Shown piece after piece: positions 251 to 25,947 of a stretch of DNA of 40,000 nucleotides. The DNA is taken from the NCBI RefSeq assembly GCF_001648895.1, contig NZ_LXUF01000001.1, forward strand, positions 1,059,726-1,099,725. Reading direction: 5' to 3'. The notes beneath the pieces are model-generated. The model was not told where the DNA came from. It saw only the letters and a list, made by a program, of their open reading frames with translations, and did not search any database. The number at the start of each line of letters is the position of its first letter. Position 1 is the first letter of the stretch. Source of the DNA: Methylovorus sp. MM2. GTDB taxonomy: Bacteria; Pseudomonadota; Gammaproteobacteria; Burkholderiales; Methylophilaceae. The position numbers and the translations under genes are program-made.

Positions 251-489
251 ATTTTCTAATTGTTATGCCAAACGTTTTGGCATGATGGGCGAGAGGGTTC
301 GCCCTATATACATACACAGTTACATACACACCGGAGTATTTCATTACCTCACTGGTTGGTCAACGTTTAGAAGCAGAAAGTTCGTTAATTTAGCCTGCCA
401 AATGCTTTAGAATGTCAGTCGTTGTAAATATAGCAATTTTTCATGCGTGACCAGTCGATAATGTTGGTCATTGCATAGCAGAGGCAAGC

Positions 490-2391: not shown

Positions 2392-2437
2392 CTCGCCTCA
2401 ATTAATTATTGCCAATTCAAATATCGCTGGAAACCTT

Positions 2438-3001: not shown

Positions 3002-3056
3002 CACAGGCTGGTCGAATCATTCGACGCAGTCTGTACATGCTAGCTTATCTTATAGC

Positions 3057-3656: not shown

Positions 3657-3737
3657 GACTCCTTACATTCGTTAAAGTTTAATTAAGTTACTTGATCTAT
3701 TATCGACACCCTATGAATGGAATTTCTACTACATGGT

Positions 3738-3762
3738 GTAAAGATGCGTAAAGCTATGTAAA
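3738..3762. promoter_or_regulatory. three GTAAA pentamers at 10-bp phasing (candidate CpxR-type operator) upstream of the EF-hand gene
   Basis: GTAAAgatgcGTAAAgctatGTAAA read directly at 3738-3742, 3748-3752 and 3758-3762, about 80-105 bp upstream of the EF-hand start (3656). Matches the published E. coli CpxR consensus GTAAA-N5-GTAAA. Confidence 0.4.
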
Positions 3763-3785
3763 GACGATTTATTGCCGGATAAAAT

Positions 3786-3825
3786 GGAAAAGCGCCATCA
3801 GTAAAGGTGCTGATGGCGCTTTTCC
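3786..3825 (-). terminator. rho-independent terminator after the CpxP/Spy-like gene
   Basis: Perfect 16-bp stem (ggaaaagcgccatcag / ctgatggcgcttttcc) with an 8-nt loop. It is followed on the minus strand by ATTTTAT and lies 40 bp downstream of the stop at 3865. Confidence 0.7.
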
Positions 3826-3864
3826 AAGAGACCAATATGTCGCTGGTTTGTCGATGACCTATGA

Positions 3865-4443
3865 TTAAGCTTTAATGAACTTGCCTGTATGGAGCGATGG
3901 CAGTTTAAAGTTAACCGGCCGGTCATTTTTACGTTGATCTGGACCATTGTGATCTGAACCATGGTGATCAGGTCGCTTGTCCTTAAGCTCCAGCGCTTTG
4001 CTACGCTGGTCAGGCGTTAATAAGCTGAATATCTTGTATTCGGTCACTGTGCGATTAAGCACAGCTTCTTTGGTTAACGCAGCAAGCTTATCAGCAAGCT
4101 GCTGTGCTTTTTTTTCATCAAAAGTAGCAGAGCGTGTTAATCCTGCAAGTTCATCCATGGCTTTGCGTTTCTGCTTTTCGTTGTCGCGCATGATGGGTAC
4201 CTGTGCATATACCATCGCGAATACCTTATCTTCTTGCGCTTCACTCAAGGCGATGTCTCTAAGGTAGGGAGGGAGCCTTGGTTTATCGTCAAACTGTGGG
4301 GGCATTGGGCGATGCTCATCGCAATGGGGCGGTGGATTGCCACCAAGCTCGCCGCGTGGGCCTGGTTCGGCTTGTGCTATCGCAGGCAAGACAAGTATCA
4401 GTTGGCTGATGATGAACAAGCTTTTGAGTGATGGTGTTTTCAT
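3865..4443 (-). CDS. periplasmic Spy/CpxP-family (LTXXQ motif) protein
   Basis: Signal peptide MKTPSLKSLFIISQLILVLPAIAQA. LTXXQ-type motifs (LLTPDQRSK, ALSEAQEDK) and a helical, charged body. Divergent from a CpxR/CpxA-like pair, as cpxP is in E. coli. Confidence 0.7.
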   Translation of the reverse strand: MKTPSLKSLFIISQLILVLPAIAQAEPGPRGELGGNPPPHCDEHRPMPPQFDDKPRLPPYLRDIALSEAQEDKVFAMVYAQVPIMRDNEKQKRKAMDELAGLTRSATFDEKKAQQLADKLAALTKEAVLNRTVTEYKIFSLLTPDQRSKALELKDKRPDHHGSDHNGPDQRKNDRPVNFKLPSLHTGKFIKA

Positions 4444-4554
4444 CTTGTATCCTTTACTGTTAAGGTGATTCTATTGTTAGTGTGATTCGTTATCACCTTC
4501 AGAGATGGCTCATCTGGCGGTTAAGCAAGCAACCCTATTTTGGTCTTTCCGCCT

Positions 4555-4590
4555 GTAAATTGCTGTTAAGGCAAAGTAAAGTTACGTAAA
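4555..4590. promoter_or_regulatory. tandem CpxR-type boxes in the divergent intergenic region
   Basis: GTAAAttgctGTTAA (4555-4569) followed by a perfect GTAAAgttacGTAAA (4576-4590). The site lies between the CpxP-like start (4443) and the response regulator start (4665). Confidence 0.5.
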
Positions 4591-4664
4591 TTCAGCACCA
4601 ATTAGTTGTAAGGGCAATATGAGAGTAGATATGATTCACTCATCGAAAATCCAGATGGTCCCCT

Positions 4665-5345
4665 ATGGCTAAAGTCTTATTAATTGATGATGATGTTGAG
4701 CTTGTCAGCTTGCTGAAAGAATACCTTGTGCGTGAAGGGTTTGAAGTAGACCTTGCTCATGATGGCGAGGCTGGTGCAACACTAGCACTCAGCGGTCAGT
4801 ATGCATTGATCGTGCTGGATGTGATGATGCCGAAATTGAATGGTATTGAAGTGCTACGCCGCATCCGTGCGCAAAGTAGCATTCCAGTATTGATGTTGAC
4901 TGCAAAAGGCGATGATGATCACCGCATTAGTGGTCTGGAGTTGGGTGCAGATGATTATGTGCCTAAACCATGCCAGCCACGTGAGCTTGTTGCACGTATC
5001 CGTGCGATATTGCGTCGACTTGCCCCTTCTGATGATGAGCCCGTGCAGATATCTGTGGGCGAGCTATCCATCTGGCCTGAGCGCCGGCTCGCTGAGTGGG
5101 CGGGCATTAATATGGAGCTAACCAGTACCGAGTACAACCTGCTTGAAGTGCTGGTGCGTCAGGCAGGACGTGTCGTCAGCAAAAATGACCTCTCAACGCT
5201 TGGTTTAGGTAGACCGCTGGCCCGGTTTGACCGCAGCATTGATGTTCACTTAAGTAGTATTCGCCAAAAGATCGCCGCATTAGCGGATGGCCATCAATGT
5301 ATCCAGACCGTCTATCGCATGGGTTACCAGTTGGTTAAAGAGTAA
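4665..5345 (+). CDS. OmpR/PhoB-family response regulator (CpxR-like)
   Basis: Receiver domain (LLIDDD.., LIVLDVMMPKLNG, LMLTAKG) plus a winged-helix C-terminus (LTSTEYNLLEVLVRQAGRVVSKNDL..VDVHLSSIRQKI..IQTVYRMGYQL). Confidence 0.9.
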   Translation: MAKVLLIDDDVELVSLLKEYLVREGFEVDLAHDGEAGATLALSGQYALIVLDVMMPKLNGIEVLRRIRAQSSIPVLMLTAKGDDDHRISGLELGADDYVPKPCQPRELVARIRAILRRLAPSDDEPVQISVGELSIWPERRLAEWAGINMELTSTEYNLLEVLVRQAGRVVSKNDLSTLGLGRPLARFDRSIDVHLSSIRQKIAALADGHQCIQTVYRMGYQLVKE

Positions 5346-5348
5346 TAT

Positions 5349-6779
5349 ATGGGTCGGTTGTTCTGGAAGTTCTTCTTCTTCTTTTCGTTTGCGCAGATCA
5401 CTTCGATCATTGCTGTTAGTTTTATATTCTGGTTGAACAGTCCCGTGCCGTCTGCACATAATGTTGCTATCGAAGACAGCCCGCCAGCGCGAATGATGGT
5501 CGATGCTGCTACCGAGACTTTAAGGTTTGGCGGTGAATCAGCGTTAAAAAGTCTCTTGACTCAATGGGCTAATGAACCTAGACCGCAGGTATATGCGGTT
5601 GATGCTACAGGTAAAGAAATACTCAAGCGTAGCGTGACGCCTACTGTACTTCACGCGCTTGGTGAAATTGAAGACCCACGCGCTGTGCAGAATGTAAAAA
5701 TTGATACAGGTGGTGAATATACTTTATTTGTTCCATCTAGAAATGCGGGTATCGCTGAGATGGATTCGCCACCTAGCGCTGAGACAGCCCCGCCTAATTT
5801 TAATAGTGCAGAAGTGCGTGGAGAACAGCCTCGTCCTAGGCATCGCATATTTCCATTTTTGCCTATGTATGTCGGCTTGGTGGCGAGTCTGATATTTGCA
5901 GGTCTACTAGCCTGGTATTTCTCGAAGCCGATCAAAATACTTCGCCGCGCATTTGAGCAGGCAGCAGGTGGCGACTTGAAAGCAACGGTAAGCACGGCAA
6001 TGGGTGCACGTCGAGATGAGCTTGCCGATCTTGGCCATGGCTTTGACCAGATGACGGCGCAACTGGATGCGCTGATATTGGGGCAGAAAAGATTGCTGCA
6101 CTACGTATCTCATGAGCTGAGATCGCCACTTGCAAGATTACAGGTGGCGATTGGTTTGGCTAAACAAACACCAGAAAAGCAAAGCCCTGAACATCTGGAA
6201 TCCACGCTTGATCGTATCGAGCTGGAGTCTATGCGGATGGATACGCTTTTAGGTGAGGTGTTGGAGCTCTCAAGGCTAGAATCGGGCGTGATGAGCCTGA
6301 AGAAAGAGCGCGTTTTACTGAATGACCTGCTGGCTACGGTGGTGGATGATGCCCGTTTTGAAGCGAATGCAAAACAGGTTGATATCGCCTATATAGAAGA
6401 TGCCCACTATGAGCTGGATGCGCAGCCAGACCTGCTTTACCGTGCGATTGAAAATGTGGTGCGTAATGCGATCAAATATAGCCCCCCTAACAGTCGTGTG
6501 GTGGTCGAGACGCTGGCGAATGAGCAACTTAACCAGCTTCAGCTGATCATCTCTGACCAAGGAATTGGTATTCCAGAGACTGAGTTAGCCGATATTTTCA
6601 AGCCGTTCTATCGGGCAAGCAGTTCAGATGCTAGTGTGACGGGGCATGGCATGGGGCTTGCAATTTCCAGGCATATTATTGAAATGCATGGCGGCGCTAT
6701 CTTGCTGAGCAACCGTGCAACAGGGGGGTTGCGGGTCAATATCTCATTAGGTTACGCGGCAAGGCATGCATTAAGCTAG
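5349..6779 (+). CDS. sensor histidine kinase (two TM helices, HAMP, HisKA, HATPase_c), CpxA-like
   Basis: H-box YVSHELRSPLARL, N-box VVRNAIKYSP, G-boxes DQGIGI and GHGMGLAI. Begins 4 bp after the response regulator stop. Confidence 0.85.
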   Translation: MGRLFWKFFFFFSFAQITSIIAVSFIFWLNSPVPSAHNVAIEDSPPARMMVDAATETLRFGGESALKSLLTQWANEPRPQVYAVDATGKEILKRSVTPTVLHALGEIEDPRAVQNVKIDTGGEYTLFVPSRNAGIAEMDSPPSAETAPPNFNSAEVRGEQPRPRHRIFPFLPMYVGLVASLIFAGLLAWYFSKPIKILRRAFEQAAGGDLKATVSTAMGARRDELADLGHGFDQMTAQLDALILGQKRLLHYVSHELRSPLARLQVAIGLAKQTPEKQSPEHLESTLDRIELESMRMDTLLGEVLELSRLESGVMSLKKERVLLNDLLATVVDDARFEANAKQVDIAYIEDAHYELDAQPDLLYRAIENVVRNAIKYSPPNSRVVVETLANEQLNQLQLIISDQGIGIPETELADIFKPFYRASSSDASVTGHGMGLAISRHIIEMHGGAILLSNRATGGLRVNISLGYAARHALS

Positions 6780-6780
6780 G

Positions 6781-7185
6781 CTAATCTGCAATCTCGCCAT
6801 CGATATATAACCACTGTTCATTTTGTTTGATGAATCTGCTGATTTCATGCAGTTTATGTGCTTTACCATTGAGTTTATAGCTAGCGATAAACTCTACGAT
6901 AGCCGTACTGCTATCCAATACTTCATGGCATTTTACTTTCAATCCGATCCATCGCGTGGTTTTCGCATCATTGGTTAAATCTAGTGAAGCAGGGCGCGTA
7001 TCCGCATGCCATGTACGTAAAAGATAGGCTTCCAGCCCTAATACATAGGCCGAATAACGTGAGCGCATCAATTGCTCTGCTGTTGTAGTGAGTTCATCTT
7101 CGTGCAAGGGCTTGCAGCATGCAGCGTAAGGCTTGCTACTTTCGCAATAGCAGGGGAGTTGAGCCGACTGTGGTTTCTTTTTCAT
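6781..7185 (-). CDS. YchJ-family (UPF0225, SEC-C-like motif) protein
   Basis: Cys cluster LPCYCESSKPYAACCKPLH followed by LMRSRYSAYV. I place the start at the internal ATG (7185, MKKKPQSAQLPCYC), which removes the overlap with the upstream ORF. The track's longer form starts at 7281. Confidence 0.7.
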   Translation of the reverse strand: MKKKPQSAQLPCYCESSKPYAACCKPLHEDELTTTAEQLMRSRYSAYVLGLEAYLLRTWHADTRPASLDLTNDAKTTRWIGLKVKCHEVLDSSTAIVEFIASYKLNGKAHKLHEISRFIKQNEQWLYIDGEIAD

Positions 7186-7234
7186 CGATTTGTGGATGTG
7201 ATGTAGCTTGACGATCATTTTACCAGCAAGTACT

Positions 7235-7747
7235 TCATGCCTGAGGTCTCGGTGGTGATTCTGTGATGATGGTTTGTACATGCTCCATCAATTCGCTGGC
7301 TAATAATCGCCCTGATTTTGATTCGCGCATCGCCATATGCCATTGAGACACGCATGCTTTGATCTCAATATGATTGGCCGCATCGAGTATATCTTTTTTG
7401 ATACTTCTGCCCATGATACCTAAGTGTTCATCAGCGCTGGAAGCCACGATGTGTTTGATGTTTTCCATCTGCGCATTATCAAGATGGATATCTGGTTCTG
7501 GCGGGAGTATTTGGGCGATGGGTTCTGCATGCGGTAAGACGATGTCTTCTGTGCGCTTGATATATCCAAGACTTTCCAGCGCTTGGGCAATAGAAGCCAC
7601 ATCAGATGTTTTCAGGTAGTTTTCCAGATGCTCAAGCGTGCGTTGACCATCGATCAATATCAAAACTTGCCGTTGCCTGGCATTTAAAGTGCGTTTGGCC
7701 GCAGATATCTCTGCGAGTCCCATATCTGATTTTTTGTAGATGACCAA
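7235..7747 (-). CDS. hypothetical protein
   Basis: 170-aa ORF with a TTG start at 7747. An ATG at 7723 (MGLAEISAAKR) is the more likely start. No recognisable motif. Confidence 0.45.
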   Translation of the reverse strand: MVIYKKSDMGLAEISAAKRTLNARQRQVLILIDGQRTLEHLENYLKTSDVASIAQALESLGYIKRTEDIVLPHAEPIAQILPPEPDIHLDNAQMENIKHIVASSADEHLGIMGRSIKKDILDAANHIEIKACVSQWHMAMRESKSGRLLASELMEHVQTIITESPPRPQA

Positions 7748-17945: not shown

Positions 17946-18683
17946 CTATGGCGTATTTTTGTGCAGCTTGGTTGACGTATGTTTCTTGCGCATGCGGATA
18001 TTGACCATCTCAACCAGTACCGAAAATGCCATTGCAAAATAGATATAACCCTTCGGCACATGTACATCCAACCCTTCGGCAATTAGCGTAAAGCCGACTA
18101 ACATGAGAAATGAAAGAGCCAATATCTTGATGGTGGGGTTGGCATCGACAAAGTCACCAATTGATTTTGCTGCCAGCAGCATCACGCCCACTGCAATGAT
18201 AATGGCAATCGCCATGATAGAAACATGATCGGCAAGCCCCACTGCAGTGATGACTGAGTCTAGTGAGAATACGATATCCAGCAACCCAATCTGTACCAAT
18301 ACCATGCCCATGGTGGTAGCAGCGGTGGGGGTTTCTGATTCCTCCGCACCTTCAAGACTATTGTGAATCTCATGGGTAGCTTTTGCCAGCAAGAATAAGC
18401 CGCCGCCGATCAGGATGATGTCTCGCCCTGAAATGCCCTGATTAAACACAGTAAACCAAGATTCAGTCAGCCCCATTACCCATGAAATAGAGAATAGTAA
18501 AGCTAAGCGTGCGAACATCGCCAACCCTAGTCCGGCTCTGCGTGCAAAGGCACGCTGCTTTTCTGGCAGGCGACCAACTAAGATCGAAATGAAAATGATG
18601 TTATCGATACCAAGCACAATCTCAAGTGCAGTTAATGTACCTAGTGCAATCCAAGCCTCAGGGCTTGCGAACCATTCAAACAT
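17946..18683 (-). CDS. TerC-family integral membrane protein
   Basis: 245 aa, multi-pass. N-terminus WIALGTLTALEIVLGIDNIIFISIL and second repeat LDIVFSLDSVITAVG (the duplicated TerC DN/DS motif). Confidence 0.85.
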   Translation of the reverse strand: MFEWFASPEAWIALGTLTALEIVLGIDNIIFISILVGRLPEKQRAFARRAGLGLAMFARLALLFSISWVMGLTESWFTVFNQGISGRDIILIGGGLFLLAKATHEIHNSLEGAEESETPTAATTMGMVLVQIGLLDIVFSLDSVITAVGLADHVSIMAIAIIIAVGVMLLAAKSIGDFVDANPTIKILALSFLMLVGFTLIAEGLDVHVPKGYIYFAMAFSVLVEMVNIRMRKKHTSTKLHKNTP

Positions 18684-18905: not shown

Positions 18906-19008
18906 ATTAAACCGAGCTGCTTTAGCAGCGATTTGAATGTCGACACTCCTTGAGGTTGCAGCGGCCATCTCGGCGGGGAATATCCTTGCGGTCTGTGATG
19001 AGTTAGGC
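18906..19008 (-). repeat. degenerate terminal attC of cassette 13
   Basis: tgatgaGTTAGGC at 18995-19008 matches the conserved end of the other attCs. attaaaccgagctgctttagcagcgatttgaatg at 18906-18939 resembles the other half. The two halves are separated by about 55 bp of unrelated sequence, and the distal core (attaaac) is imperfect. Confidence 0.35.
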
Positions 19009-19015
19009 CGTAAAC

Positions 19016-19360
19016 CTATTGGTACCATTCCGGCTTCCTTGCTTTCTTGCAGAATTGCCGTGCCGCTAATTTGTTTTTTGGTTCAATCTCTAATTCCAGC
19101 GCATTTAGTTTTGCAAGAATGTTTTCTTGGTTCTTATATTTGTGTTTGAGTTTTGCTAGCTTTGCATCAGTTCCTGGGCATGCTTGGCAAATTGACCAGT
19201 TAATATCGGCTTGCCTTTCTTCATCATAACCATCCTCACCTCGCCAGTGATCGCATGATTCGCGCAGCTTTAAGAAGTTTGAGACATCCCTCGGTAATGC
19301 ATCGGCTGCTAAGGCAGAGACGCAAACAAAAAGCAGGGTAAATAAACAAAAAAATCTCAT
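19016..19360 (-). CDS. cassette 13 ORF: small secreted Cys-containing protein, unknown function
   Basis: I take the start at 19360 (MRFFCLFTLLFVCVSALAADA, a signal peptide). The track start at 19390 lies inside attC. 114 aa with several Cys (SCDHW, SICQACPG, FCKK). Confidence 0.6.
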   Translation of the reverse strand: MRFFCLFTLLFVCVSALAADALPRDVSNFLKLRESCDHWRGEDGYDEERQADINWSICQACPGTDAKLAKLKHKYKNQENILAKLNALELEIEPKNKLAARQFCKKARKPEWYQ

Positions 19361-19363
19361 ATG

Positions 19364-19426
19364 GCCTAACGTTTGAGTGAAGGGGCACAATACTTTAGCG
19401 CGTCCCGCTTGAATGATGGGTTAGGC
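19364..19426 (-). repeat. attC of cassette 12 (aberrant, 63 bp)
   Basis: gcctaac...gttaggc cores are present, but the central stem is disrupted (ggggcacaatactttagcgcg). Confidence 0.75.
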
Positions 19427-19795
19427 AACATAGCTAATTTGCTCCAAAGTAATATATTTTTCTTCACCAACACCGGTAACGATTAACTCGATTAATACAC
19501 TAATCTCTTCGTTTATAGCCGTGACACACTCTACCAATGCATAAAGACCTGTGTCGTTAGATTTGAAGTATTTAACTTGAATTGATGTTGATTTTCGACT
19601 TGATGATTTTTCAGCTTCTGAAAGGCACTCTTCAAAATCTTGTTGAATTGCTAAAACTACATCTCGCCCAAATGCGAGGGCGTATCCAAAACGTTCAGCG
19701 AGTAATGAGAAGTTCTTGTTAGCAACCAAAGCAACAACCTCCGCCCCAAAACCCGAAAGGGTATTTTCATCTGTTTGTGCGGACGAAATTCTCAT
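19421..19795 (-). CDS. cassette 12 ORF: small soluble protein, unknown function
   Basis: 124 aa with no hydrophobic segments. The stop TAA lies inside the attC core (GCCTAAC). The ATG is 3 nt after the upstream GTTAGGC core. Confidence 0.6.
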   Translation of the reverse strand: MRISSAQTDENTLSGFGAEVVALVANKNFSLLAERFGYALAFGRDVVLAIQQDFEECLSEAEKSSSRKSTSIQVKYFKSNDTGLYALVECVTAINEEISVLIELIVTGVGEEKYITLEQISYVA

Positions 19796-19798
19796 ATT

Positions 19799-19858
19799 GC
19801 CTAACGTTTGACATAAGGGGCGCGCTTTAGCGCGTCCCGCTTGATGGATGGGTTAGGA
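19799..19858 (-). repeat. attC of cassette 11 (60 bp)
   Basis: gcctaacgtttgacataaggggcgcgctttagcgcgtcccgcttgatggatgggttagga. Confidence 0.85.
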
Positions 19859-20116
19859 AGCATTAGAAAGAGAAGCTAACCCAGAGAGCAAAATACCAAG
19901 CAACAAAAGTATAAGAGCTACTTGTGATGCACGAAGCCAGCAGTTTTTAATTTCGACTTTTGGAACACCCTCGAAATAAGCATCTTTATTTTCGGTGATG
20001 CTTAGACCATAGAATGAAAATAGAGCTAAAACTAATGTGCCTGAAACTTGCAGAGCTGTGGCTAACAAAGTGATGCAAAACATATGGCTTTTCACAAACT
20101 CGAATAACCCGCACAT
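19853..20116 (-). CDS. cassette 11 ORF: 87-aa two-TM membrane protein, unknown function
   Basis: Two long hydrophobic stretches (FCITLLATALQVSGTLVLALFSFYGL and VALILLLLGILLSGLASL). The stop lies inside the attC core. Confidence 0.55.
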   Translation of the reverse strand: MCGLFEFVKSHMFCITLLATALQVSGTLVLALFSFYGLSITENKDAYFEGVPKVEIKNCWLRASQVALILLLLGILLSGLASLSNAS

Positions 20117-20123
20117 ATTGTGT

Positions 20124-20181
20124 TCCTAACGTTTGAATTAAGGGGCGCCGTTAGGCGTCCCGCTTGAATGATGGGTTAGGC
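20124..20181 (-). repeat. attC of cassette 10 (58-bp subtype)
   Basis: tcctaacgtttgaattaaggggcgccgttaggcgtcccgcttgaatgatgggttaggc. Confidence 0.85.
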
Positions 20182-20476
20182 TTATTTTTTTAGGTAGAGA
20201 AATTGCATAGAGTAATAAACCAATGGTTCCAATAAATTTAGCTATTAGAGGAGCTAGACCGAATAAAGGCGGATAACTGACAGTGCGAAAGTTTATTGCA
20301 AGTTGGAACATGATAAGCGGAGAAATAGTAGCTACTAAAGCTCCAAAGAAAAACATAGCGGTGGGTATGGTTCTTGAGCGCCAATAGAGAATGCCTGCGC
20401 CACATAAGAGAACATATTCCACAGTGTGACTTATGAGAAGCATTAAGTAGTTCATTATAGTTATCAAAATGATCAT
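20138..20476 (-). CDS. cassette 10 ORF: small multi-pass membrane protein; the C-terminal 13 aa are encoded by attC
   Basis: 112 aa and hydrophobic throughout. The frame skips the TAA in the attC core and ends ...LTHHSSGTPNGAP at a TAA near the distal core. Confidence 0.55.
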   Translation of the reverse strand: MIILITIMNYLMLLISHTVEYVLLCGAGILYWRSRTIPTAMFFFGALVATISPLIMFQLAINFRTVSYPPLFGLAPLIAKFIGTIGLLLYAISLPKKISLTHHSSGTPNGAP

Positions 20477-20486
20477 AATTTTTAAA

Positions 20487-20546
20487 GCCTAACGTTTGAG
20501 GTAAGAGGCGCGCGCAAGCGCGTTCTGCTTGACCGAGGGGTTAGCC
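20487..20546 (-). repeat. attC of cassette 9 (60 bp, divergent)
   Basis: gcctaacgtttgaggtaagaggcgcgcgcaagcgcgttctgcttgaccgaggggttagcc. Confidence 0.8.
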
Positions 20547-20552
20547 ATTTTT

Positions 20553-21047
20553 TTATTTAAAAAGTACATGCAGCTCATAACCTTTTCCCGTAGGCCAATT
20601 GTCTCGAGTAATTTCGATAGTTGATTTTCCAAGTTTAGCCTGGATTGGTTTGCCAGATTTAATTGCGGTAGAAATTGAAGAGGGCAATTTCTCTCCAGTA
20701 ATTTTCTTGCTCAAGACCTCTGATGAGTTGATAAGCTCGGAATAAGCAGAAGAAGTCTCTGATTTATTATTTATGTTTAATACTAATTTAGCTTGAGTAG
20801 CTAAACTACTTTCGCCTTCTACATAATATGCTAGGTTGTTTGCCATAGGAAAACCCGTACCAATTTCTTTATATCGACTACTGCAGCTAAATTGGTTTTC
20901 ATATAGATTTTTCCAGCCTCGTGTAGCAAGCCCCACCTCTTTTAAAAATGAGCACACTTTGATTGGAGAGGTTTCTACAAGAGCAGCATTTGCAGTGGCA
21001 ACCATGAATGAAGTTAGAGTGATTAGTAAGGTTATAAAACTACGCAT
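20553..21047 (-). CDS. cassette 9 ORF: secreted protein, unknown function
   Basis: 164 aa with signal peptide MRSFITLLITLTSFMVATANA. It is the only cassette with a clear SD (caggaa) ahead of the ATG. Confidence 0.65.
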   Translation of the reverse strand: MRSFITLLITLTSFMVATANAALVETSPIKVCSFLKEVGLATRGWKNLYENQFSCSSRYKEIGTGFPMANNLAYYVEGESSLATQAKLVLNINNKSETSSAYSELINSSEVLSKKITGEKLPSSISTAIKSGKPIQAKLGKSTIEITRDNWPTGKGYELHVLFK

Positions 21048-21062
21048 TGTGGTTCCTGAAAT

Positions 21063-21122
21063 GGCTAACGTTTGAATTAAGGGGCGCGCTTTAGCGCGTC
21101 CCGCTTGAATGATGGGTTAGGG
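21063..21122 (-). repeat. attC of cassette 8 (60 bp)
   Basis: ggctaacgtttgaattaaggggcgcgctttagcgcgtcccgcttgaatgatgggttaggg. Confidence 0.85.
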
Positions 21123-21131
21123 AACATAACC

Positions 21132-21461
21132 TTACCGCCACTCATGAATAGATGGAATTGGCCCGAAAGTTTTTGCCAGTACATAAAATGCGAGCAAGAA
21201 CAGGGCTGCCAAAAAGACTAGGCCTACAAAAAAGTAAAGCATATCAATTGCAAAATGTTTCGCGCTAAGTCGCACAGCACTTACAAACCCTTTTTGCTTT
21301 TTGACTTCTGATTCATAAGAGAGAGAATCAGTTTTTGGGAAACTAATTATATTTAATGAAAGCAAACGTAGAGCAAAGCGACCAATGTCACTCACCCATT
21401 CTAGAAGAACAAAATAGAGAGCTCGATCAATAGTTCGAGACTGCATTTTTCTCGTTTCCAT
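21132..21461 (-). CDS. cassette 8 ORF: small membrane protein, unknown function
   Basis: 109 aa. C-terminal hydrophobic helix MLYFFVGLVFLAALFLLAFYVLA and an earlier amphipathic/hydrophobic segment. Confidence 0.55.
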   Translation of the reverse strand: METRKMQSRTIDRALYFVLLEWVSDIGRFALRLLSLNIISFPKTDSLSYESEVKKQKGFVSAVRLSAKHFAIDMLYFFVGLVFLAALFLLAFYVLAKTFGPIPSIHEWR

Positions 21462-21471
21462 GCTTATTATT

Positions 21472-21531
21472 CCCTAACGTTTGAATTAAGGGGCTGGCTT
21501 TAGCCAGTCCCGCTTGAATGATGGGTTAGCC
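21472..21531 (-). repeat. attC of cassette 7 (60 bp)
   Basis: ccctaacgtttgaattaaggggctggctttagccagtcccgcttgaatgatgggttagcc. Confidence 0.85.
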
Positions 21532-22026
21532 AGCATGCCGAGCCTTGAGCAAAGCACGCAGACCAAGTATAGCCAAAGCAGCCAAGGCCGAGAATACACA
21601 AAACAGATGTAACTCTCTGAGCGGGACAAGCTGATAAAGGGCGTTTGTTTCACTGAACGGTGAAAGTGGGACGATATCAGAGTGCATGACACTATCTAGC
21701 ACGATATGAGAATAGCTACCTGCTGCTGCACCTAACCAAATGGGTATTGGCTTTAAGCTTTGCCAATGAAATAAATTAGGTAACTTTAAACGGGAGGCCA
21801 GCTTTAGGGAGAGCATGAAAATAAGGGCTGTAAGCACCATGATGATGGTAGCGCCAACATAGGTATGAAAGAACCGATGCAATGGATATTGGTGAGTAAC
21901 TATGAAATATAGCGGCTCAATATCAATGAGTATATTAGCTGAACAGAAAGCTAGGAAACTGACATGCTTCGGTGCAACCGCATGAAGTGCAGCGCCAGGG
22001 CCAAAATGAAAAGGGGTAAATGGCAT
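21526..22026 (-). CDS. cassette 7 ORF: multi-pass membrane protein, possibly a DUF4184-like membrane metal-dependent hydrolase
   Basis: I take the start at 22026 (MPFTPFHFGPGAALHAV...). The track start at 22056 lies in the neighbouring attC. His-rich conserved-looking positions (FHFGP, THQYPLHRFFHTY, SYSHIVLDSVMHSD) sit between TM helices. The family call is from memory only. Confidence 0.55.
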   Translation of the reverse strand: MPFTPFHFGPGAALHAVAPKHVSFLAFCSANILIDIEPLYFIVTHQYPLHRFFHTYVGATIIMVLTALIFMLSLKLASRLKLPNLFHWQSLKPIPIWLGAAAGSYSHIVLDSVMHSDIVPLSPFSETNALYQLVPLRELHLFCVFSALAALAILGLRALLKARHAG

Positions 22027-22040
22027 CGTTGGTTTTAGAG

Positions 22041-22100
22041 GGCTAACGTTTGACATAAGGGGCGCGCTTTAGCGCGTCCCGCTTGATGGAATGGTTAGAG
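22041..22100 (-). repeat. attC of cassette 6 (60 bp)
   Basis: ggctaacgtttgacataaggggcgcgctttagcgcgtcccgcttgatggaatggttagag. Confidence 0.85.
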
Positions 22101-22103
22101 GTT

Positions 22104-22610
22104 TTAAGCCGCATGATTTGTAAAAGGCTTGGTAATGAACTTGGCAATTGAATGAGCCCTAAATAAGAAGGCTAAAGCAATAATTAACTCTATCAATATA
22201 AAGCTGACATCTGCTTTGCCTTCGGCACCTAAAGTATCAAGGATTGAGGCAGAACCAGCTTTTAAGCTCGTTTGAAACAGGTACGATACTAAATCGGGTG
22301 CAGCATCGACGACTTTCCATAACCCTAGCATTGCAATGCCTACGGTTGCAACTTCATCTGGACGTGTATTGAGCCGATTTTCGAAGGTGGTTTTTGGTAC
22401 TAGTTTATGAGAGATAACCATCGGGAAAAACCAAGAAAGCACTGCAACTGATAAATATATAGTACCAATAACTAACGAGGCCGAGGCTTTGTCATCCATT
22501 CCATGGGACCACAATGCATTGGGCATTCCTGAAAGGTAAGGAATTGAAAATAAAGCCATCGTTATTGAAAACATACGTATAGCCAAACCGACGAATTGCT
22601 GCGGAGTCAT
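22104..22610 (-). CDS. cassette 6 ORF: multi-pass membrane protein, unknown function
   Basis: I take the start at 22610 (MTPQQFVGLAIRMF...). It is preceded by GTTAGAGGTGAAAAT, so the attC core plus flank forms a GAGGTGA SD. 168 aa with about 4 hydrophobic helices. Confidence 0.6.
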   Translation of the reverse strand: MTPQQFVGLAIRMFSITMALFSIPYLSGMPNALWSHGMDDKASASLVIGTIYLSVAVLSWFFPMVISHKLVPKTTFENRLNTRPDEVATVGIAMLGLWKVVDAAPDLVSYLFQTSLKAGSASILDTLGAEGKADVSFILIELIIALAFLFRAHSIAKFITKPFTNHAA

Positions 22611-22618
22611 ATTTTCAC

Positions 22619-22678
22619 CTCTAACGTTTGAATTAAGGGGCACGCTTTAGCGTGTCCTGCTTGAATGATGGGTTGGGG
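22619..22678 (-). repeat. attC of cassette 5 (60 bp)
   Basis: ctctaacgtttgaattaaggggcacgctttagcgtgtcctgcttgaatgatgggttgggg. Confidence 0.85.
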
Positions 22679-22732
22679 CGCTCATAGATTCTGGCTGAGT
22701 TTCGAGTTTGCAGTTGTTCTAAAGACGCGAAG

Positions 22733-23101
22733 CTACCGATGCTTCTTATGGCCAAAAGAAAACAACGCAACGAAACCTGAGAGCCAATAAGTGATTATGC
22801 TAAAGGCAAGCAACATTACACGAGACGGATCATTGCTTGCGTGGAATCCCCACTGGATTAAGAAGCCGACAAGAATCGATGTCCACGCGCAGCTAAGTGC
22901 AATAGAACGTTCAGATCCGCGAAGTACCGCAACGAACACTGTAAGAAGGGGGGCAGCCGATACGACGGCGAAGACCACTACCGCAGATAAAAAGCCGTGA
23001 CCACCTTCCGGCAGATTTGATGCCACAAGTATCTCTCCTGCCATAAGTACAAGCAAAAGTACCGCTGTGGTCTTGGTCAACACGTTCGTATCAGTAGACA
23101 T
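22733..23101 (-). CDS. cassette 5 ORF: four-TM membrane protein, unknown function
   Basis: 122 aa and almost entirely hydrophobic, with a basic C-terminus (GHKKHR). A 54-nt spacer separates the stop from attC. Confidence 0.55.
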   Translation of the reverse strand: MSTDTNVLTKTTAVLLLVLMAGEILVASNLPEGGHGFLSAVVVFAVVSAAPLLTVFVAVLRGSERSIALSCAWTSILVGFLIQWGFHASNDPSRVMLLAFSIITYWLSGFVALFSFGHKKHR

Positions 23102-23106
23102 GTGCG

Positions 23107-23166
23107 CCCCAACGTTTGAATTAAGGGGCGTGCTTTAGCACGTCCCGCTTGAATGATGGGTTAGAC
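23107..23166 (-). repeat. attC of cassette 4 (60 bp)
   Basis: ccccaacgtttgaattaaggggcgtgctttagcacgtcccgcttgaatgatgggttagac. Confidence 0.85.
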
Positions 23167-23175
23167 GACATAATT

Positions 23176-23520
23176 TTACAATGGTGGTGAAGGTGGAAAC
23201 CCACGATGTAGAAACCAATCGGCGGCGAAGAAAATAAGTGGCGCTACAATAATTGAGATGGTGCATGCAACAAAACGGAATAATTTAGTCTGTTTTTGAC
23301 CGCCACGGTAAAACAACCAGAAGAAAAACGTACTAAGCCATATAACAAGAGCCACATAAGGCAGTACACCACTTAAAACAACCCATTGCTCTGTATAGTT
23401 ACTAACACCACCACCAACATTAAGCCAATTGTACATAAAGGCGCTGTATGCACTGCAATACGCAGAGAGAGCTGCAGCAATGTTGGTATAAAATAACAAC
23501 TTAAATGCTCTATTCTTCAT
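23176..23520 (-). CDS. cassette 4 ORF: three/four-TM membrane protein, unknown function
   Basis: 114 aa with aromatic-rich hydrophobic helices (VALVIWLSTFFFWLFY, ISIIVAPLIFFAADWF). Confidence 0.55.
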   Translation of the reverse strand: MKNRAFKLLFYTNIAAALSAYCSAYSAFMYNWLNVGGGVSNYTEQWVVLSGVLPYVALVIWLSTFFFWLFYRGGQKQTKLFRFVACTISIIVAPLIFFAADWFLHRGFPPSPPL

Positions 23521-23524
23521 GGCG

Positions 23525-23582
23525 TTCTAACGTTTGAATTAAGGGGCGCCGCTAGGCGTCCCGCTTGAATGATGGGTTAGAG
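23525..23582 (-). repeat. attC of cassette 3 (58-bp subtype)
   Basis: ttctaacgtttgaattaaggggcgccgctaggcgtcccgcttgaatgatgggttagag. Confidence 0.85.
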
Positions 23583-23867
23583 CTCATGTTTAACTCTCCA
23601 CTCTTCAGTCCAGGAGTGAATTTTGACGTGATGCACTTGCTTCGAGTTATCAGTACGTTCACTTTTTAGCATGGAGGTAGTTAATTCATTGCTGCCCCAA
23701 TCTTGAGTAAAAAGATGATTATGGTCGCACACGCCTTTCTCAAGCTTTTGCAGCATATTGGAAAGGGACTTTTGTAAAAGCTCAATTCCCTCTTTATTTG
23801 CATGAATATTGACCGTATCACCTTCTGGTGATGTAACAAAACTTAAAAGAGGAGCAACTTTAGTCAT
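23577..23867 (-). CDS. cassette 3 ORF: 96-aa soluble protein, possibly immunity-protein-like (Imm32-type)
   Basis: No hydrophobic segment. The central CDHNHLFTQDWGSNEL reminds me of the H.HL..W motif of small Imm32-type immunity proteins. This is recollection only and is not verified. Confidence 0.5.
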   Translation of the reverse strand: MTKVAPLLSFVTSPEGDTVNIHANKEGIELLQKSLSNMLQKLEKGVCDHNHLFTQDWGSNELTTSMLKSERTDNSKQVHHVKIHSWTEEWRVKHEL

Positions 23868-23874
23868 TGGTGAG

Positions 23875-23932
23875 CTCTAACGTTTGAATTAAGGGGCGCC
23901 GTTAGGCGTCCCACTTGAATGATGGGTTAGGC
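23875..23932 (-). repeat. attC of cassette 2 (58-bp subtype)
   Basis: ctctaacgtttgaattaaggggcgccgttaggcgtcccacttgaatgatgggttaggc. Confidence 0.85.
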
Positions 23933-24329
23933 CATAACTTTGCTCAGCCATGTTTGCTGAATTTACGACGAGCCACCCAGCGTGCGCCCAAAGTGCGATA
24001 GAGATAAAAACCAAAATACCGCCAGAGAAAAATGCCGTAAAGAGCGACGCAAGATTTAAAGCGAGAACTGCGTTACCCAGACTAGGTTTGCTACTGGATG
24101 CTAGCTTGTAGGCAAGAACAGTTAGCAAGATGCCGGGGTATATGCCAAGAGTAAGTACGGTGAGAAGTAAGCCCATGCTGGGAGTTGGGAAGTTTGCTTT
24201 GTATAGTTTGCCAATTGAACCAGCTTTGAAAACCACCCAGATGGCACCATACAACCCTAAAGTAATACCATTGGCAAAGTAAAACTTTCCACGACTGTGG
24301 TTGATATTGCTGAGTAAACCATCGCTCAT
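23889..24329 (-). CDS. cassette 2 ORF: multi-pass membrane protein with repeated GxY-type helices (weakly DUF4234-like); the C-terminal tail is encoded by attC
   Basis: I take the start at 24329 (MSDGLLSN...). The track start at 24350 lies in the neighbouring attC. Contains GITLGLYGAIWV and LTLGIYPGILL. It ends with the same attC-encoded LTHHSSGTPNGAP as cassette 10. Confidence 0.55.
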   Translation of the reverse strand: MSDGLLSNINHSRGKFYFANGITLGLYGAIWVVFKAGSIGKLYKANFPTPSMGLLLTVLTLGIYPGILLTVLAYKLASSSKPSLGNAVLALNLASLFTAFFSGGILVFISIALWAHAGWLVVNSANMAEQSYGLTHHSSGTPNGAP

Positions 24330-24334
24330 TTTCT

Positions 24335-24394
24335 GCCTAACGTTTGACATAAGGGGCTTGCGATAGCAAGTCCCGCTTGATGGACGGGTTAGAG
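24335..24394 (-). repeat. attC of cassette 1 (60 bp)
   Basis: gcctaacgtttgacataaggggcttgcgatagcaagtcccgcttgatggacgggttagag. Confidence 0.85.
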
Positions 24395-24404
24395 CTCACG
24401 CCGT

Positions 24405-24818
24405 TTAGACCCATTTGGCAATTCCATAGACGATGGTTCCTATGCCAAAGGCAAGCTGCATACCAAAGAGAACACGGAACGCCACTGTATAGCGGATGAC
24501 GCCCGTGTGGCGCTTGGCGTCAAGCGCAAAGAGGCGGGAGTGCTGTGGAAATTGCTTTTCGTATTCCTTGAGCCCTGGTACGGCAAGCTTAAGAAGACTC
24601 TGGCTTCGTACATCGATTACAGCGAACACTACCGAGAGTACGACAACAAAGCCGCCGATGAGGGCGAATACGGCACCATGCGAAGACTTCTCTACGGCGG
24701 CAAATACGCCACCATTAGCGAACACCGAAAAGACAACGAAGAAGTTAAACGCTTTCAGTCGCTGCTCGGCGTTGAACGCAAAATGTTTCCAGAGATAATC
24801 GAATTCTTCGGTGTTCAT
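24405..24818 (-). CDS. cassette 1 ORF (attI-proximal): 137-aa membrane protein, unknown function
   Basis: N-terminal soluble segment MNTEEFDYLWKHFAFNAEQRLKAFNFF runs into hydrophobic helices (FVVFSVFANGGVFAAV, AVFALIGGFVVVLSVVFAVI, VLFGMQLAFGIGTIVYGIA). The ATG is 7 nt after the attI crossover core. Confidence 0.6.
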   Translation of the reverse strand: MNTEEFDYLWKHFAFNAEQRLKAFNFFVVFSVFANGGVFAAVEKSSHGAVFALIGGFVVVLSVVFAVIDVRSQSLLKLAVPGLKEYEKQFPQHSRLFALDAKRHTGVIRYTVAFRVLFGMQLAFGIGTIVYGIAKWV

Positions 24819-24843
24819 ATTTGGGCTCTAACGTAAAGTAGAC

Positions 24844-24872
24844 ATCCTATTTGACGCTTTATTTTGCGTCAA
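24844..24872 (-). promoter_or_regulatory. candidate cassette promoter (Pc-like) inside attI
   Basis: Minus strand reads TTGACG-(17 nt)-TAGGAT, with the -35 at 24872..24867 and the -10 at 24849..24844, firing toward the attI crossover and cassette 1. This is a sequence match only. The -35 lies within the inverted repeat. Confidence 0.35.
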
Positions 24873-24912: not shown

Positions 24913-24957
24913 GAAATCATGTGATTAAATATTTTTAGTACATCCTAAATTTAAAAT

Positions 24958-25947
24958 ATGAATACGTCAAATATAGAGCCGCCTAAGCTGTTAGAGCAAG
25001 TGCGTGGAAAAATCCGGCTTAAGCATTACAGCATACGCACTGAGCAAGCTTATGTTGATTGGATTAAACGATACATTTTGCATTTTGACAAGCGGCACCC
25101 AAAAGACTTGGGGGCGGCAGAAGTGGAGCAGTTTTTAACGCACTTGGCGGTGCATGGAAAAGTCGCGGCATCCACACAAAATCAGGCAAAAAGTGCGCTG
25201 CTATTCTTGTATAAAGAGATTTTAGCGCTTGAGCTGCCTTGGTTGGATGATGTGGAACGCGCAAAAACGCCCAAGCGCTTGCCCGTGGTGCTTAGCCAAG
25301 CTGAAGTCCAGCAAATACTCTCGCATTTGGAAGGCACGCATCACCTGATTGTAAGTTTGCTTTATGGCACAGGCATGCGGATTATGGAGGCGTTGCGTTT
25401 GCGCGTGAAAGACATTGATTTTGCCCGCAAAGAGATTTTGATACGTGATGGCAAGGGTTATAAAGACCGCATTACGATGTTGCCGCTAAGTTTGATCGCG
25501 CCGCTGCAAGCGCATATCAAGCGCGTAAAAACTGTGCATGAAAAAGATTTGAATGATGGCTATGGTGCGGTCTATATGCCGTTTGCGCTGAACAAAAAAT
25601 ATCCATATGCAGCACGGGATTGGTCTTGGCAATACATATTTCCTTCTGGCAAGTTATCGGTTGATCCGCGTGCTACAGAAGAAGCGCCTGAAAGCCGACG
25701 CCACCATATTCAAGATCAGGCGATTCAACGTGCAGTGCGGCAGGCAGTGATGGACGCAGGCTTAACCAAACCCGCCACGCCGCATACGTTTCGTCATAGT
25801 TTTGCTACGCATTTGCTCGAAAGCGGCTATGATATTCGCACTGTGCAAGAGTTACTTGGGCATAGTGATGTGGCAACCACCATGATTTATACGCATGTAT
25901 TGAATAAAGGTGGTCGCGGGGTTGCCAGCCCATTGGATAATCTATGA
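24958..25947 (+). CDS. intI: integron integrase (tyrosine recombinase, IntI family)
   Basis: 329 aa. Catalytic residues in context ([18 protein letters not shown]; [12 protein letters not shown]; [13 protein letters not shown]). Carries the IntI-specific insertion between patches ([29 protein letters not shown]....RRHH). The C-terminus [14 protein letters not shown] is typical of IntI proteins. Confidence 0.92.

Follow-up and report, generated by a model that had tools for sequence, protein, structure and literature searches.

What do the small proteins encoded by the cassettes of the Methylovorus sp. MM2 integron do, and does the abundance of membrane proteins among them point to phage defence? 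The host is a methylotroph of the family Methylophilaceae and not a Vibrio. In the window, the stretch of 40,000 nucleotides that we analysed, the locus is a sedentary chromosomal integron with its cassette array: the integrase gene intI, which also matches the Pfam families Phage_integrase and Phage_int_SAM_4, stands next to 13 minus-strand cassettes (C1 to C13) that lie between attI and a decayed attC remnant and cover about 5.8 kb (Table 1). This identity is supported by the one register shared by the 12 attC hairpins, together with attI. The 12 attC sites found through repeat families and a hairpin detector are near-identical, 58-63 nt long and of a single homogeneous type; attC 4 was missed by the detector because its R'' and R' boxes are complementary at only 4 of 7 positions, and no matching R' was seen in the sequence read after the decayed terminal site. 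Each cassette carries one long ORF, which occupies 75-96% of its length and begins 5-20 nt past the GTT box. All 13 are read away from intI and, with the best-supported starts, encode 87-168 aa, so that the size range and the shared orientation given in the initial annotation are borne out. The 13 cassettes are independent units, each consisting of an ORF and an attC, and represent 13 unrelated families.

Table 1. Integron features, in window coordinates; aa, amino acids; TM, transmembrane.
Feature	Position	Strand	Evidence or remark
intI integron integrase, 329 aa	24958..25947	+	TIGR02249, 491.8 bits (cut-off 265)
Candidate Pc, TTGACG-17-TAGGAT	24844..24872	-	Predicted by consensus scan, 9/12 matches; directed into array
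attI recombination box, GTTAGAG	24826..24832	-	Sequence read; 8 nt upstream of C1 start codon
C1 ORF, 137 aa	24405..24818	-	3 TM segments; 8xMP-like, below cut-off
attC 1, 60 nt	24335..24394	-	Repeat family D1; hairpin detector
C2 ORF, 146 aa	23889..24329	-	3-4 TM segments; weak DUF4234 match
attC 2, 58-nt variant	23875..23932	-	Repeat family D4; hairpin detector
C3 ORF, 96 aa	23577..23867	-	Soluble; Imm32 family immunity protein
attC 3, 58-nt variant	23525..23582	-	Repeat search; hairpin detector
C4 ORF, 114 aa	23176..23520	-	2-3 TM segments; unnamed family
attC 4, 60 nt, R' = GTTGGGG	23107..23166	-	Repeat families D1 and D3
C5 ORF, 122 aa	22733..23101	-	3-4 TM segments; unnamed family
attC 5	22619..22678	-	Repeat search; hairpin detector
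C6 ORF, 168 aa	22104..22610	-	Four long helices; large unnamed family recurring in integrons
attC 6	22041..22100	-	Repeat search; hairpin detector
C7 ORF, 166 aa	21526..22026	-	True start MPFTPFHFGPG; 3-4 TM segments
attC 7	21472..21531	-	Repeat search; hairpin detector
C8 ORF, 109 aa	21132..21461	-	One clear C-terminal TM segment; unnamed family
attC 8	21063..21122	-	Repeat search; hairpin detector
C9 ORF, 164 aa	20553..21047	-	Signal peptide; stand-alone DUF6030-like domain
attC 9	20487..20546	-	Repeat search; hairpin detector
C10 ORF, 112 aa	20138..20476	-	3 TM segments; unnamed family
attC 10, 58-nt variant	20124..20181	-	Repeat search; hairpin detector
C11 ORF, 87 aa	19853..20116	-	2 TM segments; unnamed family
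attC 11	19799..19858	-	Repeat search; hairpin detector
C12 ORF, 124 aa	19421..19795	-	Acidic, soluble; large unnamed family
attC 12, 63 nt, diverged loop	19364..19426	-	Repeat search; hairpin detector
C13 ORF, 114 aa from ATG	19016..19360	-	Signal peptide; unnamed family
Decayed terminal attC, R''/L'' half alone (GCCTAACTCATCA...)	18990..19008	-	Sequence read

Under the standard integron model, the cassettes are presumed to be promoterless and the candidate promoter at the attI/intI junction would transcribe the array, with expression dropping with distance. IntI would cut cassettes out and reinsert them at attI, so that the attI-proximal C1 is probably both the newest and the best expressed. 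The C1 cassette recurs in another array (L098) with 99.4% nucleotide identity and exact cassette limits, at an internal position and among different neighbours; the identity begins at position 24834, adjoining the attI box. This recurrence is, to all appearances, cassette mobility. C6 is also found as a cassette in a Methylotenera MAG (L091), whose attC sites are of the same 58-nt type, and in an array of Ramlibacter (L093), and a homologue of C12 is flanked by attC sites, i.e. is a cassette, in L087.

Since short hydrophobic ORFs can arise when a T-rich strand of low-GC DNA is translated, the membrane proteins might be spurious. Cassette GC content is 0.37-0.50 compared to about 0.48 in the flanks, the coding strand is T-rich, several ORFs lack a canonical Shine-Dalgarno sequence, and for eight of them the 90%-identity cluster has no member outside the MM2 genome. 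However, every cassette ORF has full-length homologues (30-83% identity), all 13 are annotated by NCBI, and the C1 cassette is kept as a unit in L098. The dN/dS of C6 relative to its Methylotenera copy is 0.26, and its AlphaFold2 model is a confident four-helix structure (pLDDT 93.9). These observations effectively refute the idea of spurious ORFs, to which we give next to no credence.

Membrane segments and signal peptides were called with a Kyte-Doolittle scan, a crude hydropathy rule rather than a trained predictor, which found at least two TM-like segments in C1, C2, C4, C5, C6, C7, C10 and C11 and a single clear one in C8 (residues 77-95). Thus eight of the nine proteins initially annotated as multi-pass fit that description, and for C8 it is uncertain. 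The same scan reproduced the earlier classes of the other four, with N-terminal signal peptides in C9 and C13 (ANA-A and ALA-A) and soluble products for C3 and C12. The nine membrane ORFs are mutually unrelated. The view that small membrane proteins dominate the cargo is upheld. In 29 related integron arrays, the same rule yields 43 membrane ORFs out of 155 (28%) versus 9 out of 13 here (69%; binomial P=0.0022, Fisher P=0.0036); membrane genes account for 7 of 31 in the flanking chromosome. The arrays vary widely in their membrane share, and one other (L049, 10/12) is at least as rich. About one third of cassettes have been described as encoding signal-peptide or TM proteins (PMC10963911). The excess seen here is not explained by 'ordinary cargo' and may reflect strain-specific selection.

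The initial annotation had assigned none of the ORFs to a characterised family, which still describes eight of them but neither C3 nor C7, and C1, C2 and C9 have Pfam links that fall below the curated cut-offs. C3 scores above the Pfam gathering threshold for Imm32 (PF15566, 30.4 bits, cut-off 27, E=3.6e-7) and is named 'Imm32 family immunity protein' by NCBI; it thus does belong to a biological-conflict family, one of inter-bacterial toxin immunity rather than phage defence. The function of Imm32, as an immunity protein of polymorphic toxin systems, is itself a computational prediction. C7 matches PF04307 (E=7e-5) and is below the cut-offs of both the YdjM/YbcI (DUF457) and DUF4184 profiles, while its homologues (51-60% identical) carry PF04307/PF13803, one of them (P0038) reaching 41.7 bits for DUF4184 (cut-off 25). 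Their alignment reveals nine invariant His, Asp or Glu residues (H7, D35, E37, H50, H54, H107, D111, H115 and D117), and C7 is a putative membrane metal-dependent hydrolase of the YdjM/DUF4184 type. In E. coli, ydjM is LexA-regulated.

Among the sub-threshold links, C1 matches the 8xMP family (PF24838) with 25.8 bits (E=1e-5, cut-off 30) and its 60% identical homologue P0041 with 27.6 bits (E=3e-6) over profile positions 7-133 of 136; a literature search turned up no paper describing this family. C2, which would be 153 aa long if started at an upstream ATG inside attC 1, matches DUF4234 (PF14018, E=2e-4, 21.9 bits, cut-off 25.3). Its final 13 aa are encoded by attC 2, with the stop codon 44 nt into the site, and this tail is common to C10, whose last 13 residues are encoded by attC 10. 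C9 is under the cut-off for DUF6030 (PF19495, E=5e-4), which its relatives P0034 and P0035 exceed; homologues labelled 'hypothetical protein' also occur on Pseudomonas megaplasmids. As initially annotated, no resistance or toxin-antitoxin family was matched in profile searches of the 13 ORFs, and none of the cassettes could be placed in a housekeeping family.

The eight ORFs without a named family (C4, C5, C6, C8, C10, C11, C12 and C13) had no match in Pfam, NCBIfam, PHROG, PADLOC or the PDB, and a Pfam search of 142 sequences (141 of their homologues and C4 itself) was also negative. An exhaustive phmmer search with a concatenated query gave 1125 matches at E<=1e-3, with homologues for all eight, which are therefore real genes. 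C6 has 170 or more clusters of homologues, every one labelled 'hypothetical' and lacking a Pfam domain, and its model has no fold match in the PDB. C12 has at least 65 clusters, and its AlphaFold2 model (pLDDT 94.6) comprises three helices and then a sheet of four strands, with no significant match among PDB and viral folds (best E=0.37). C13 has 20 clusters, whose alignment keeps residues C36, C61 and a C-terminal Cys. Of the others, C4 and C5 have four clusters each (39-47% and 43-53% identity), C8 and C11 three each (42-71% and 46-54%), and C10 a single one (60%).

We infer that the cargo consists of heterogeneous envelope-facing accessory proteins, and the array is probably integron 'dark matter' of the ordinary kind in which membrane proteins are more frequent than average, of which a minority perhaps confers phage resistance. 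The nine membrane ORFs would be inner-membrane proteins, including the putative hydrolase C7, the 8xMP-like C1 and the four-helix C6; C9 and C13 would be periplasmic or secreted; C3 would be a cytosolic, orphan member of Imm32 that gives immunity to polymorphic toxins; and C12, a compact alpha/beta protein predicted to be cytosolic, may act in a similar immunity role. It is conceivable, if rather doubtful, that the soluble cassettes, perhaps together with some of those for membrane proteins, serve as orphan immunity genes that guard against polymorphic toxins (T6SS, CDI etc.) from rival bacteria, making the array in part a 'poly-immunity' store. The Imm32 score of C3 and the lack of a cognate toxin, as expected of orphan immunity genes, agree with this, as does the position of a C12 homologue directly upstream of a gene for Rap1a, a T6SS immunity protein, in L085. 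The small, acidic C12 also bears a weak resemblance to NTF2/cystatin-like folds such as that of the T6SS immunity protein Tai3 (TM<=0.46, non-significant). However, the family-level link concerns C3 alone, the Rap1a context is a single short contig, the fold matches of C12 are all non-significant, the contexts of its other homologues are uninformative, and nine membrane proteins would be left unexplained.

The initial annotation had proposed that the membrane cassettes are a plausible reservoir of undescribed defence, exclusion or envelope-modifying functions. That they chiefly make up a collection of single-gene anti-phage systems, acting at the inner membrane as abortive-infection pore formers or as injection or exclusion blockers, seems to us improbable. 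In its favour, 18% of the V. cholerae SCI cassettes without known function are anti-phage, including the TM-only Brigantia (10.1101/2024.07.02.601686); anti-phage activity was reported for about one third of mobile-integron gcus, TM helices are present in about a third of the defence cassettes found among them (BRiCs), and Deva, a predicted octameric pore, blocks T7 injection (10.1101/2024.07.02.601719); and a small TM cassette protein confers T4 resistance (10.64898/2026.03.17.712381). C1, in what is presumably the best-expressed position, resembles a family labelled as an octameric membrane protein by Pfam. On the other hand, the PADLOC search for defence families gave the proposal no support, with nothing better than E=0.005, i.e. 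noise level; PHROGs matched no cassette, no relative of any was present in the 50,697 phage genomes of INPHARED, and IMG/VR contained no member of the C6 or C12 families. Homologues mostly reside in other integron arrays or ordinary chromosome rather than in defence islands, with a TIR gene nearby in one context only (L100), and C7 resembles an enzyme rather than a pore. Published base rates also predict a minority of cassettes, not a majority; on these rates, about 2-4 of the 13 may confer phage resistance. The base rate is the sole argument for defence; it is a prior and not evidence on these genes, and nothing found here shows the cassettes to be phage-defence genes.

The array of accessory envelope proteins that we favour can be set against several known systems. 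C1 and P0041 align to most of the 136-position 8xMP profile ('octameric membrane protein family') and share the N-terminal helix followed by TM segments, but both are under its gathering threshold. C7 and its homologues are multi-pass, with conserved His/Asp/Glu positions, as in the YdjM/YbcI and DUF4184 families, from which C7 differs in its lower scores and in being cassette-borne. Like Imm32 proteins, C3 is small and soluble and matches profile positions 1-45 of 54, but it is a lone integron cassette with no adjacent toxin gene and not part of a toxin-immunity operon. C1, C2, C4, C5, C6, C8, C10 and C11 resemble Deva and Brigantia in being single small cassette-borne TM ORFs with no recognisable domain; Deva (brcWGS21), the one integron defence protein in the literature that is membrane-only and predicted to be an octamer, has no sequence similarity to any cassette here and no Pfam 8xMP match, and both systems have a published anti-phage phenotype. 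Compared to sedentary chromosomal integrons such as the V. cholerae superintegron and those of soil and freshwater betaproteobacteria, the MM2 array is small, has no toxin-antitoxin cassette, exceeds the membrane share of about 28% in the 29 related arrays and belongs to a Methylophilaceae methylotroph. It shares with them an intI with the integron-specific signature, an attI, co-oriented short single-ORF cassettes, one homogeneous lineage-typical attC type, a cargo mostly without known function and the presence of the same cassette in different arrays.

Our analysis showed the array to be a genuine sedentary chromosomal integron of an ordinary kind, whose cargo is real, for the most part unnamed, and contains an unusually large share of small inner-membrane proteins. 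It lies on the chromosome of Methylovorus sp. MM2, to whose OAM528xx/OAM53349 or WP_ accessions all 13 cassette proteins are identical, and it adjoins the gene of an integron-type tyrosine recombinase, intI (491.8 bits on TIGR02249, whose cut-off is 265). Directly upstream of intI and reading the opposite way is attI (GTTAGAG), followed by 13 cassettes, whose ORFs are called C1 to C13 counting from attI; they are spaced by 12 attC (58-63 nt), all members of a single tight repeat family. The attC are imperfect palindromes bounding each ORF; they carry an R'' (..YAAC) and an R' (GTTR..) box and form 15-19 terminal pairs (-20 to -29 kcal/mol). Each cassette has one long array-oriented ORF, which starts 5-20 nt past the GTT box and fills 75-96% of the cassette length. 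The coordinates, cassette count, co-orientation and range of ORF lengths (87-168 aa when the best-supported starts are used) of the initial annotation are thus all correct. After C13 there is a half attC, with the R''/L'' arm present and the R' arm gone, about 300 nt short of a TerC-family gene; this has the appearance of a fixed array end that has decayed. A candidate Pc promoter on the attI side (TTGACG-17-TAGGAT) matches the consensus; the copy of this motif just upstream of attI stands within a short inverted repeat (tttgacgc...gcgtcaaa), and a second copy 98 nt away overlaps the intI start codon. An Rfam search of the whole window gave no match. Most cassettes are poorer in GC (0.37-0.42; GC3 0.28-0.41) than the chromosome on either side (about 0.47-0.50); C1 and C5 have the same GC content as the host (0.49-0.50).

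Coordinates of features in the window and in the loci fetched from other genomes
Feature	Sequence	Position	Strand
intI	window	24958-25947	+
second TTGACG-17-TAGGAT copy	window	24942-24970	-
Pc candidate	window	24872-24844	-
attI	window	24832-24826
cassette ORFs, C13 to C1	window	19016-24818	-
Cassette 1, GTT box to attC end	window	24834-24337	-
C2 tail within attC variant	window	23889-23932	-
C7 start	window	22026	-
C10 tail within attC variant	window	20138-20181	-
half attC after C13	window	about 19008-18990
TerC-family gene	window	17946-18683
133-aa ORF, same tail	L098	8887-8925
attC-type array and Mu-like phage genes	L091 (JAURYE010000020.1)	1-7368
C6 homologue and following genes	L081	4001-8348
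C12 and C7 homologues	L100	7001-9215

Every one of the 13 cassettes is a real, conserved gene. An exhaustive phmmer search with C4, C5, C6, C8, C10, C11, C12 and C13 concatenated found 1125 proteins at E<=1e-3; several searches took concatenated cassette proteins as a single query in this way, and their matches were re-assigned to cassettes by BLAST, which gave 49 homologues for C6, 65 for C12, 20 for C13 and 1-4 each for C4, C5, C8, C10 and C11. Counts from the word-indexed search, which left out the window's own clusters, are counts of relatives below about 90% identity. The relatives of C1, C7 and C9 are 34-60% identical to them, and C6, compared with a copy of 83% identity from a Methylotenera metagenome-assembled genome (MAG), has a dN/dS of 0.26. 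These homologues, the dN/dS value and the structure models described below rule out the view that the ORFs are spurious. Phage origin was rejected after tblastn of all 13 proteins against 50,697 phage genomes and searches of IMG/VR with the C6 and C12 profiles, neither of which gave a single match. Carriage by plasmids or mobile integrons was likewise rejected: the only related genes on plasmids are C9-like genes and single C6- and C7-like genes, all of them annotated 'hypothetical protein' and located outside integrons. Direct evidence that cassette 1 is a discrete mobile cassette comes from its recurrence at 99.4% nucleotide identity in another array (L098), which lies on a metagenomic contig of 1.75 Mb, since this copy spans the exact cassette limits and is flanked by unrelated cassettes. 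The C6 cassette is common to the window and to the Methylotenera locus L091, with the same attC type in both, which fits cassettes that behave as discrete mobile units.

The initial annotation's description of the array was largely right, but its label 'entirely unrecognisable' for the cargo is too strong: eight cassettes remain unnamed, while one has a firm family, one a probable family and three a weak family link. The firm case is C3, which matches Imm32 (PF15566) at 30.4 bits against a gathering threshold of 27 (E=3.6e-7), in agreement with its NCBI name. An Imm32 protein would be expected to neutralise a cognate polymorphic toxin, as a rule encoded beside it; Pfam scans of the neighbouring cassettes revealed no toxin-like ORF. 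C7, whose true start (see table) was chosen because its homologues begin MPFTPFHFGPG, reaches 22.8 bits on YdjM (PF04307; threshold 29) and is 51-60% identical to YdjM- and DUF4184-carrying proteins; among these, P0038 (54% identical to C7) passes DUF4184 (41.7 versus 25) and nearly passes YdjM (28.7 versus 29). C7 is a multi-pass protein (3-4 TM segments) with metal-ligand-type residues invariant in six sequences (H7, D35, E37, H50, H54, H107, D111, H115 and D117), and this His/Asp/Glu set fits the annotation of the YdjM/DUF4184 group as 'membrane-bound metal-dependent hydrolase'. C1 spans most of the 8xMP profile (PF24838) at a sub-threshold 25.8 bits (cut-off 30), as does its relative P0041 (60% identical; 27.6 bits); the cluster members P0003 and P0004 score 25.8 and 25.3 bits. 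Our literature search found no paper on 8xMP. P0041 (290 aa, from an ENA metagenome) joins a GNAT acetyltransferase to the C1-like protein, probably because the gene call reads through an attC that separates two adjacent cassettes rather than by true fusion. The signal-peptide protein C9 appears from profile matches to correspond to part of DUF6030, scoring 20.2 bits (cut-off 26.7) over profile positions 86-214 of 254, and its longer relatives P0034 and P0035 lie above the cut-off. The match of C2 to DUF4234 is weak (21.9 bits versus 25.3). To our knowledge, none of the families of C3, C7, C1, C9 and C2 has an experimentally established function. The initial annotation's statement that the array has no resistance-like gene and no obvious toxin-antitoxin pair agrees with Pfam and NCBIfam, which give no such match for any of the 13 proteins.

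The eight remaining ORFs, C4, C5, C6, C8, C10, C11, C12 and C13, have no match in any of Pfam, NCBIfam, PHROGs and PADLOC, and Pfam searches with each of 142 sequences alone (C4 and 141 homologues of the eight) also gave zero matches. The most useful concrete products of this work are the C6 and C12 families, which are large, confidently folded, without a Pfam family and recurrent in integrons. In the AlphaFold2 models built from their alignments, C6 (pLDDT 93.9) consists of four long helices, and C12 (pLDDT 94.6) of three helices and, after them, an antiparallel sheet of four strands. No PDB fold matches either model at E<=0.001, and C12 has no match in a viral structure set; its closest fold likeness, which is non-significant, is to NTF2/cystatin-like folds (TM<=0.46). 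Sequence searches of the PDB gave no match for the C6, C12 and C13 family profiles and nothing significant in sequence or profile searches for C1, C6, C12 and C13.

A profile search collected at least 170 clusters of the C6 family, all 'hypothetical' and without Pfam domains. The family occurs in at least three different integrons, the window included: it is a cassette between attC of the same 58-nt type in L091, and again in a Ramlibacter array adjoining intI (L093/L094). In L091, where the C6 cassette (83% amino acid identity) is followed by a DUF6869 cassette, the array abuts the Mu-like phage genes Portal_Mu, Phage_Mu_F and Phage_tail_S. The family is also found at non-integron chromosomal sites, such as L081 and L082-L084, where the C6 homologue, lying in L081 downstream of a LysR regulator, lies 16 nt ahead of a 105-aa gene, with a 947-aa gene lacking any Pfam match next in line; this locus could represent an operon not yet characterised. 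The idea of a conserved C6-C7 pair was rejected, since in both L088 and L081 the C6 homologue is followed by a gene unrelated to C7. Members of the C12 family were found as a cassette in L087, beside a Rap1a T6SS-immunity gene in L085 and, in L100, in the vicinity of genes for a TIR protein, a transposase and a C7-like protein. On this last, unrelated 32-kb contig, the C12 (52%) and C7 (39%) homologues are 1.2 kb apart, gene end to start, with a LysR gene between them and the TIR-domain gene and transposase just upstream; the pairing may be a coincidence or reflect a common accessory-gene pool. A relative of C13 is located after an AHSA1-family gene.

The initial annotation had divided the cargo into nine multi-pass membrane proteins, two proteins with signal peptides and two soluble ones, and these classes were reproduced by a Kyte-Doolittle scan (19 residues, threshold 1.6), a crude rule, save for C8, whose 'multi-pass' label is uncertain. 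At least two TM-like segments were called in each of C1, C2, C4, C5, C6, C7, C10 and C11, and none in C3 and C12; C8 has a single strong segment (residues 77-95) and an N-terminal hydrophobic stretch under the threshold, while in C9 and C13 the sole segment is N-terminal and signal-like, ending ANA|A and ALA|A. No relationship links the nine membrane ORFs to one another; their one likeness is a 13-residue C-terminal tail, LTHHSSGTPNGAP, in C2 and C10, which they have in common because both ORFs extend 44 nt into a 58-nt attC variant. The same tail occurs on a third unrelated cassette protein, the 133-aa ORF of L098, and in all three the stop codon comes only after ~44 nt of the variant.

For comparison, we took 80 loci around related integrases, used a simple detector of attC hairpins (11/12 sites found in the window) to delimit their arrays, and applied the same TM rule to the longest ORF of each cassette. 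This gave 29 related arrays with 155 ORF-bearing cassettes, of which 43 (28%) were membrane, 12 signal peptide only and 100 soluble, as against 9, 2 and 2 of the 13 in the window. On the assumption of independent cassettes, and with this crude rule, the difference in membrane share (9/13 versus 43/155) has a binomial P of 0.0022 and a Fisher P of 0.0036. By the same rule 7/31 flanking chromosomal genes in the window are membrane, and about a third of cassettes have been reported to encode a signal peptide or TM domain (PMC10963911). The membrane excess is therefore real but moderate, with a wide spread among arrays: the closest relatives have 2/9 (L003), 0/8 (L006) and 1/7 (L007). In an uncultured betaproteobacterium (L049, contig_10763; 10 kb upstream of intI), 10/12 cassette ORFs were called membrane, a count that may be inflated by high GC content, and membrane-rich arrays are therefore not unique to the MM2 genome.

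The best reading of these observations is that the cargo consists of heterogeneous envelope-facing accessory genes, including one orphan toxin-immunity gene. The initial annotation had also seen in it a plausible reservoir of undescribed defence functions, and this interpretation is neither refuted nor supported by our data. A check against PADLOC-DB v2 found no significant match to a defence model, the best being C9 (E=0.005) and C3 (E=0.012), both to models named PDC-S05 at 14-15 bits. Support for defence remains a prior from published base rates, one study having reported anti-phage activity for 18% of V. cholerae cassettes of unknown function (10.1101/2024.07.02.601686) and another for roughly one third of the gcus of mobile integrons (10.1101/2024.07.02.601719), with some of the active proteins in these two screens being TM-only. 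At such rates, perhaps two to four phage-resistance genes would be present in the array. The strongest candidates for a membrane-acting defence would be C1, an 8xMP-like protein next to attI, and the family of the four-helix protein C6. We think it unlikely that at least one family-less membrane cassette is a new single-gene membrane phage-exclusion or abortive-infection system, spread by integrons among freshwater and soil Betaproteobacteria, or, as a related possibility, that C12 founds a new immunity-protein family with a fold absent from the PDB.

An especially attractive lead was that 8xMP, which Pfam describes as 'octameric membrane protein', might be the family of Deva (gcuWGS21), a TM-only integron cassette protein predicted to form an octameric pore and shown to impede T7 injection (10.1101/2024.07.02.601719). 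A link between Deva and C1 or 8xMP was rejected, as the gcuWGS21 sequence from the preprint supplement resembles no cassette of the array and its frame-stitched translation matches nothing in Pfam, 8xMP included; both are soft negatives, the text being OCR-derived and carrying frameshifts. Since the cassettes are real conserved genes, and C6 and C12 are large, modelled families without a Pfam or solved relative, the array is a sensible and cheap target for a cloning screen and for family definition. It overturns nothing, the high fraction of unknown, membrane and secreted proteins among cassettes being already documented and other arrays being at least equally membrane-rich. Integron cassettes rank among the largest reservoirs of functionally uncharacterised genes, part of which proved anti-phage in recent screens, and to this reservoir the array adds 13 compact, well-delimited cassettes from a non-Vibrio, non-clinical host.
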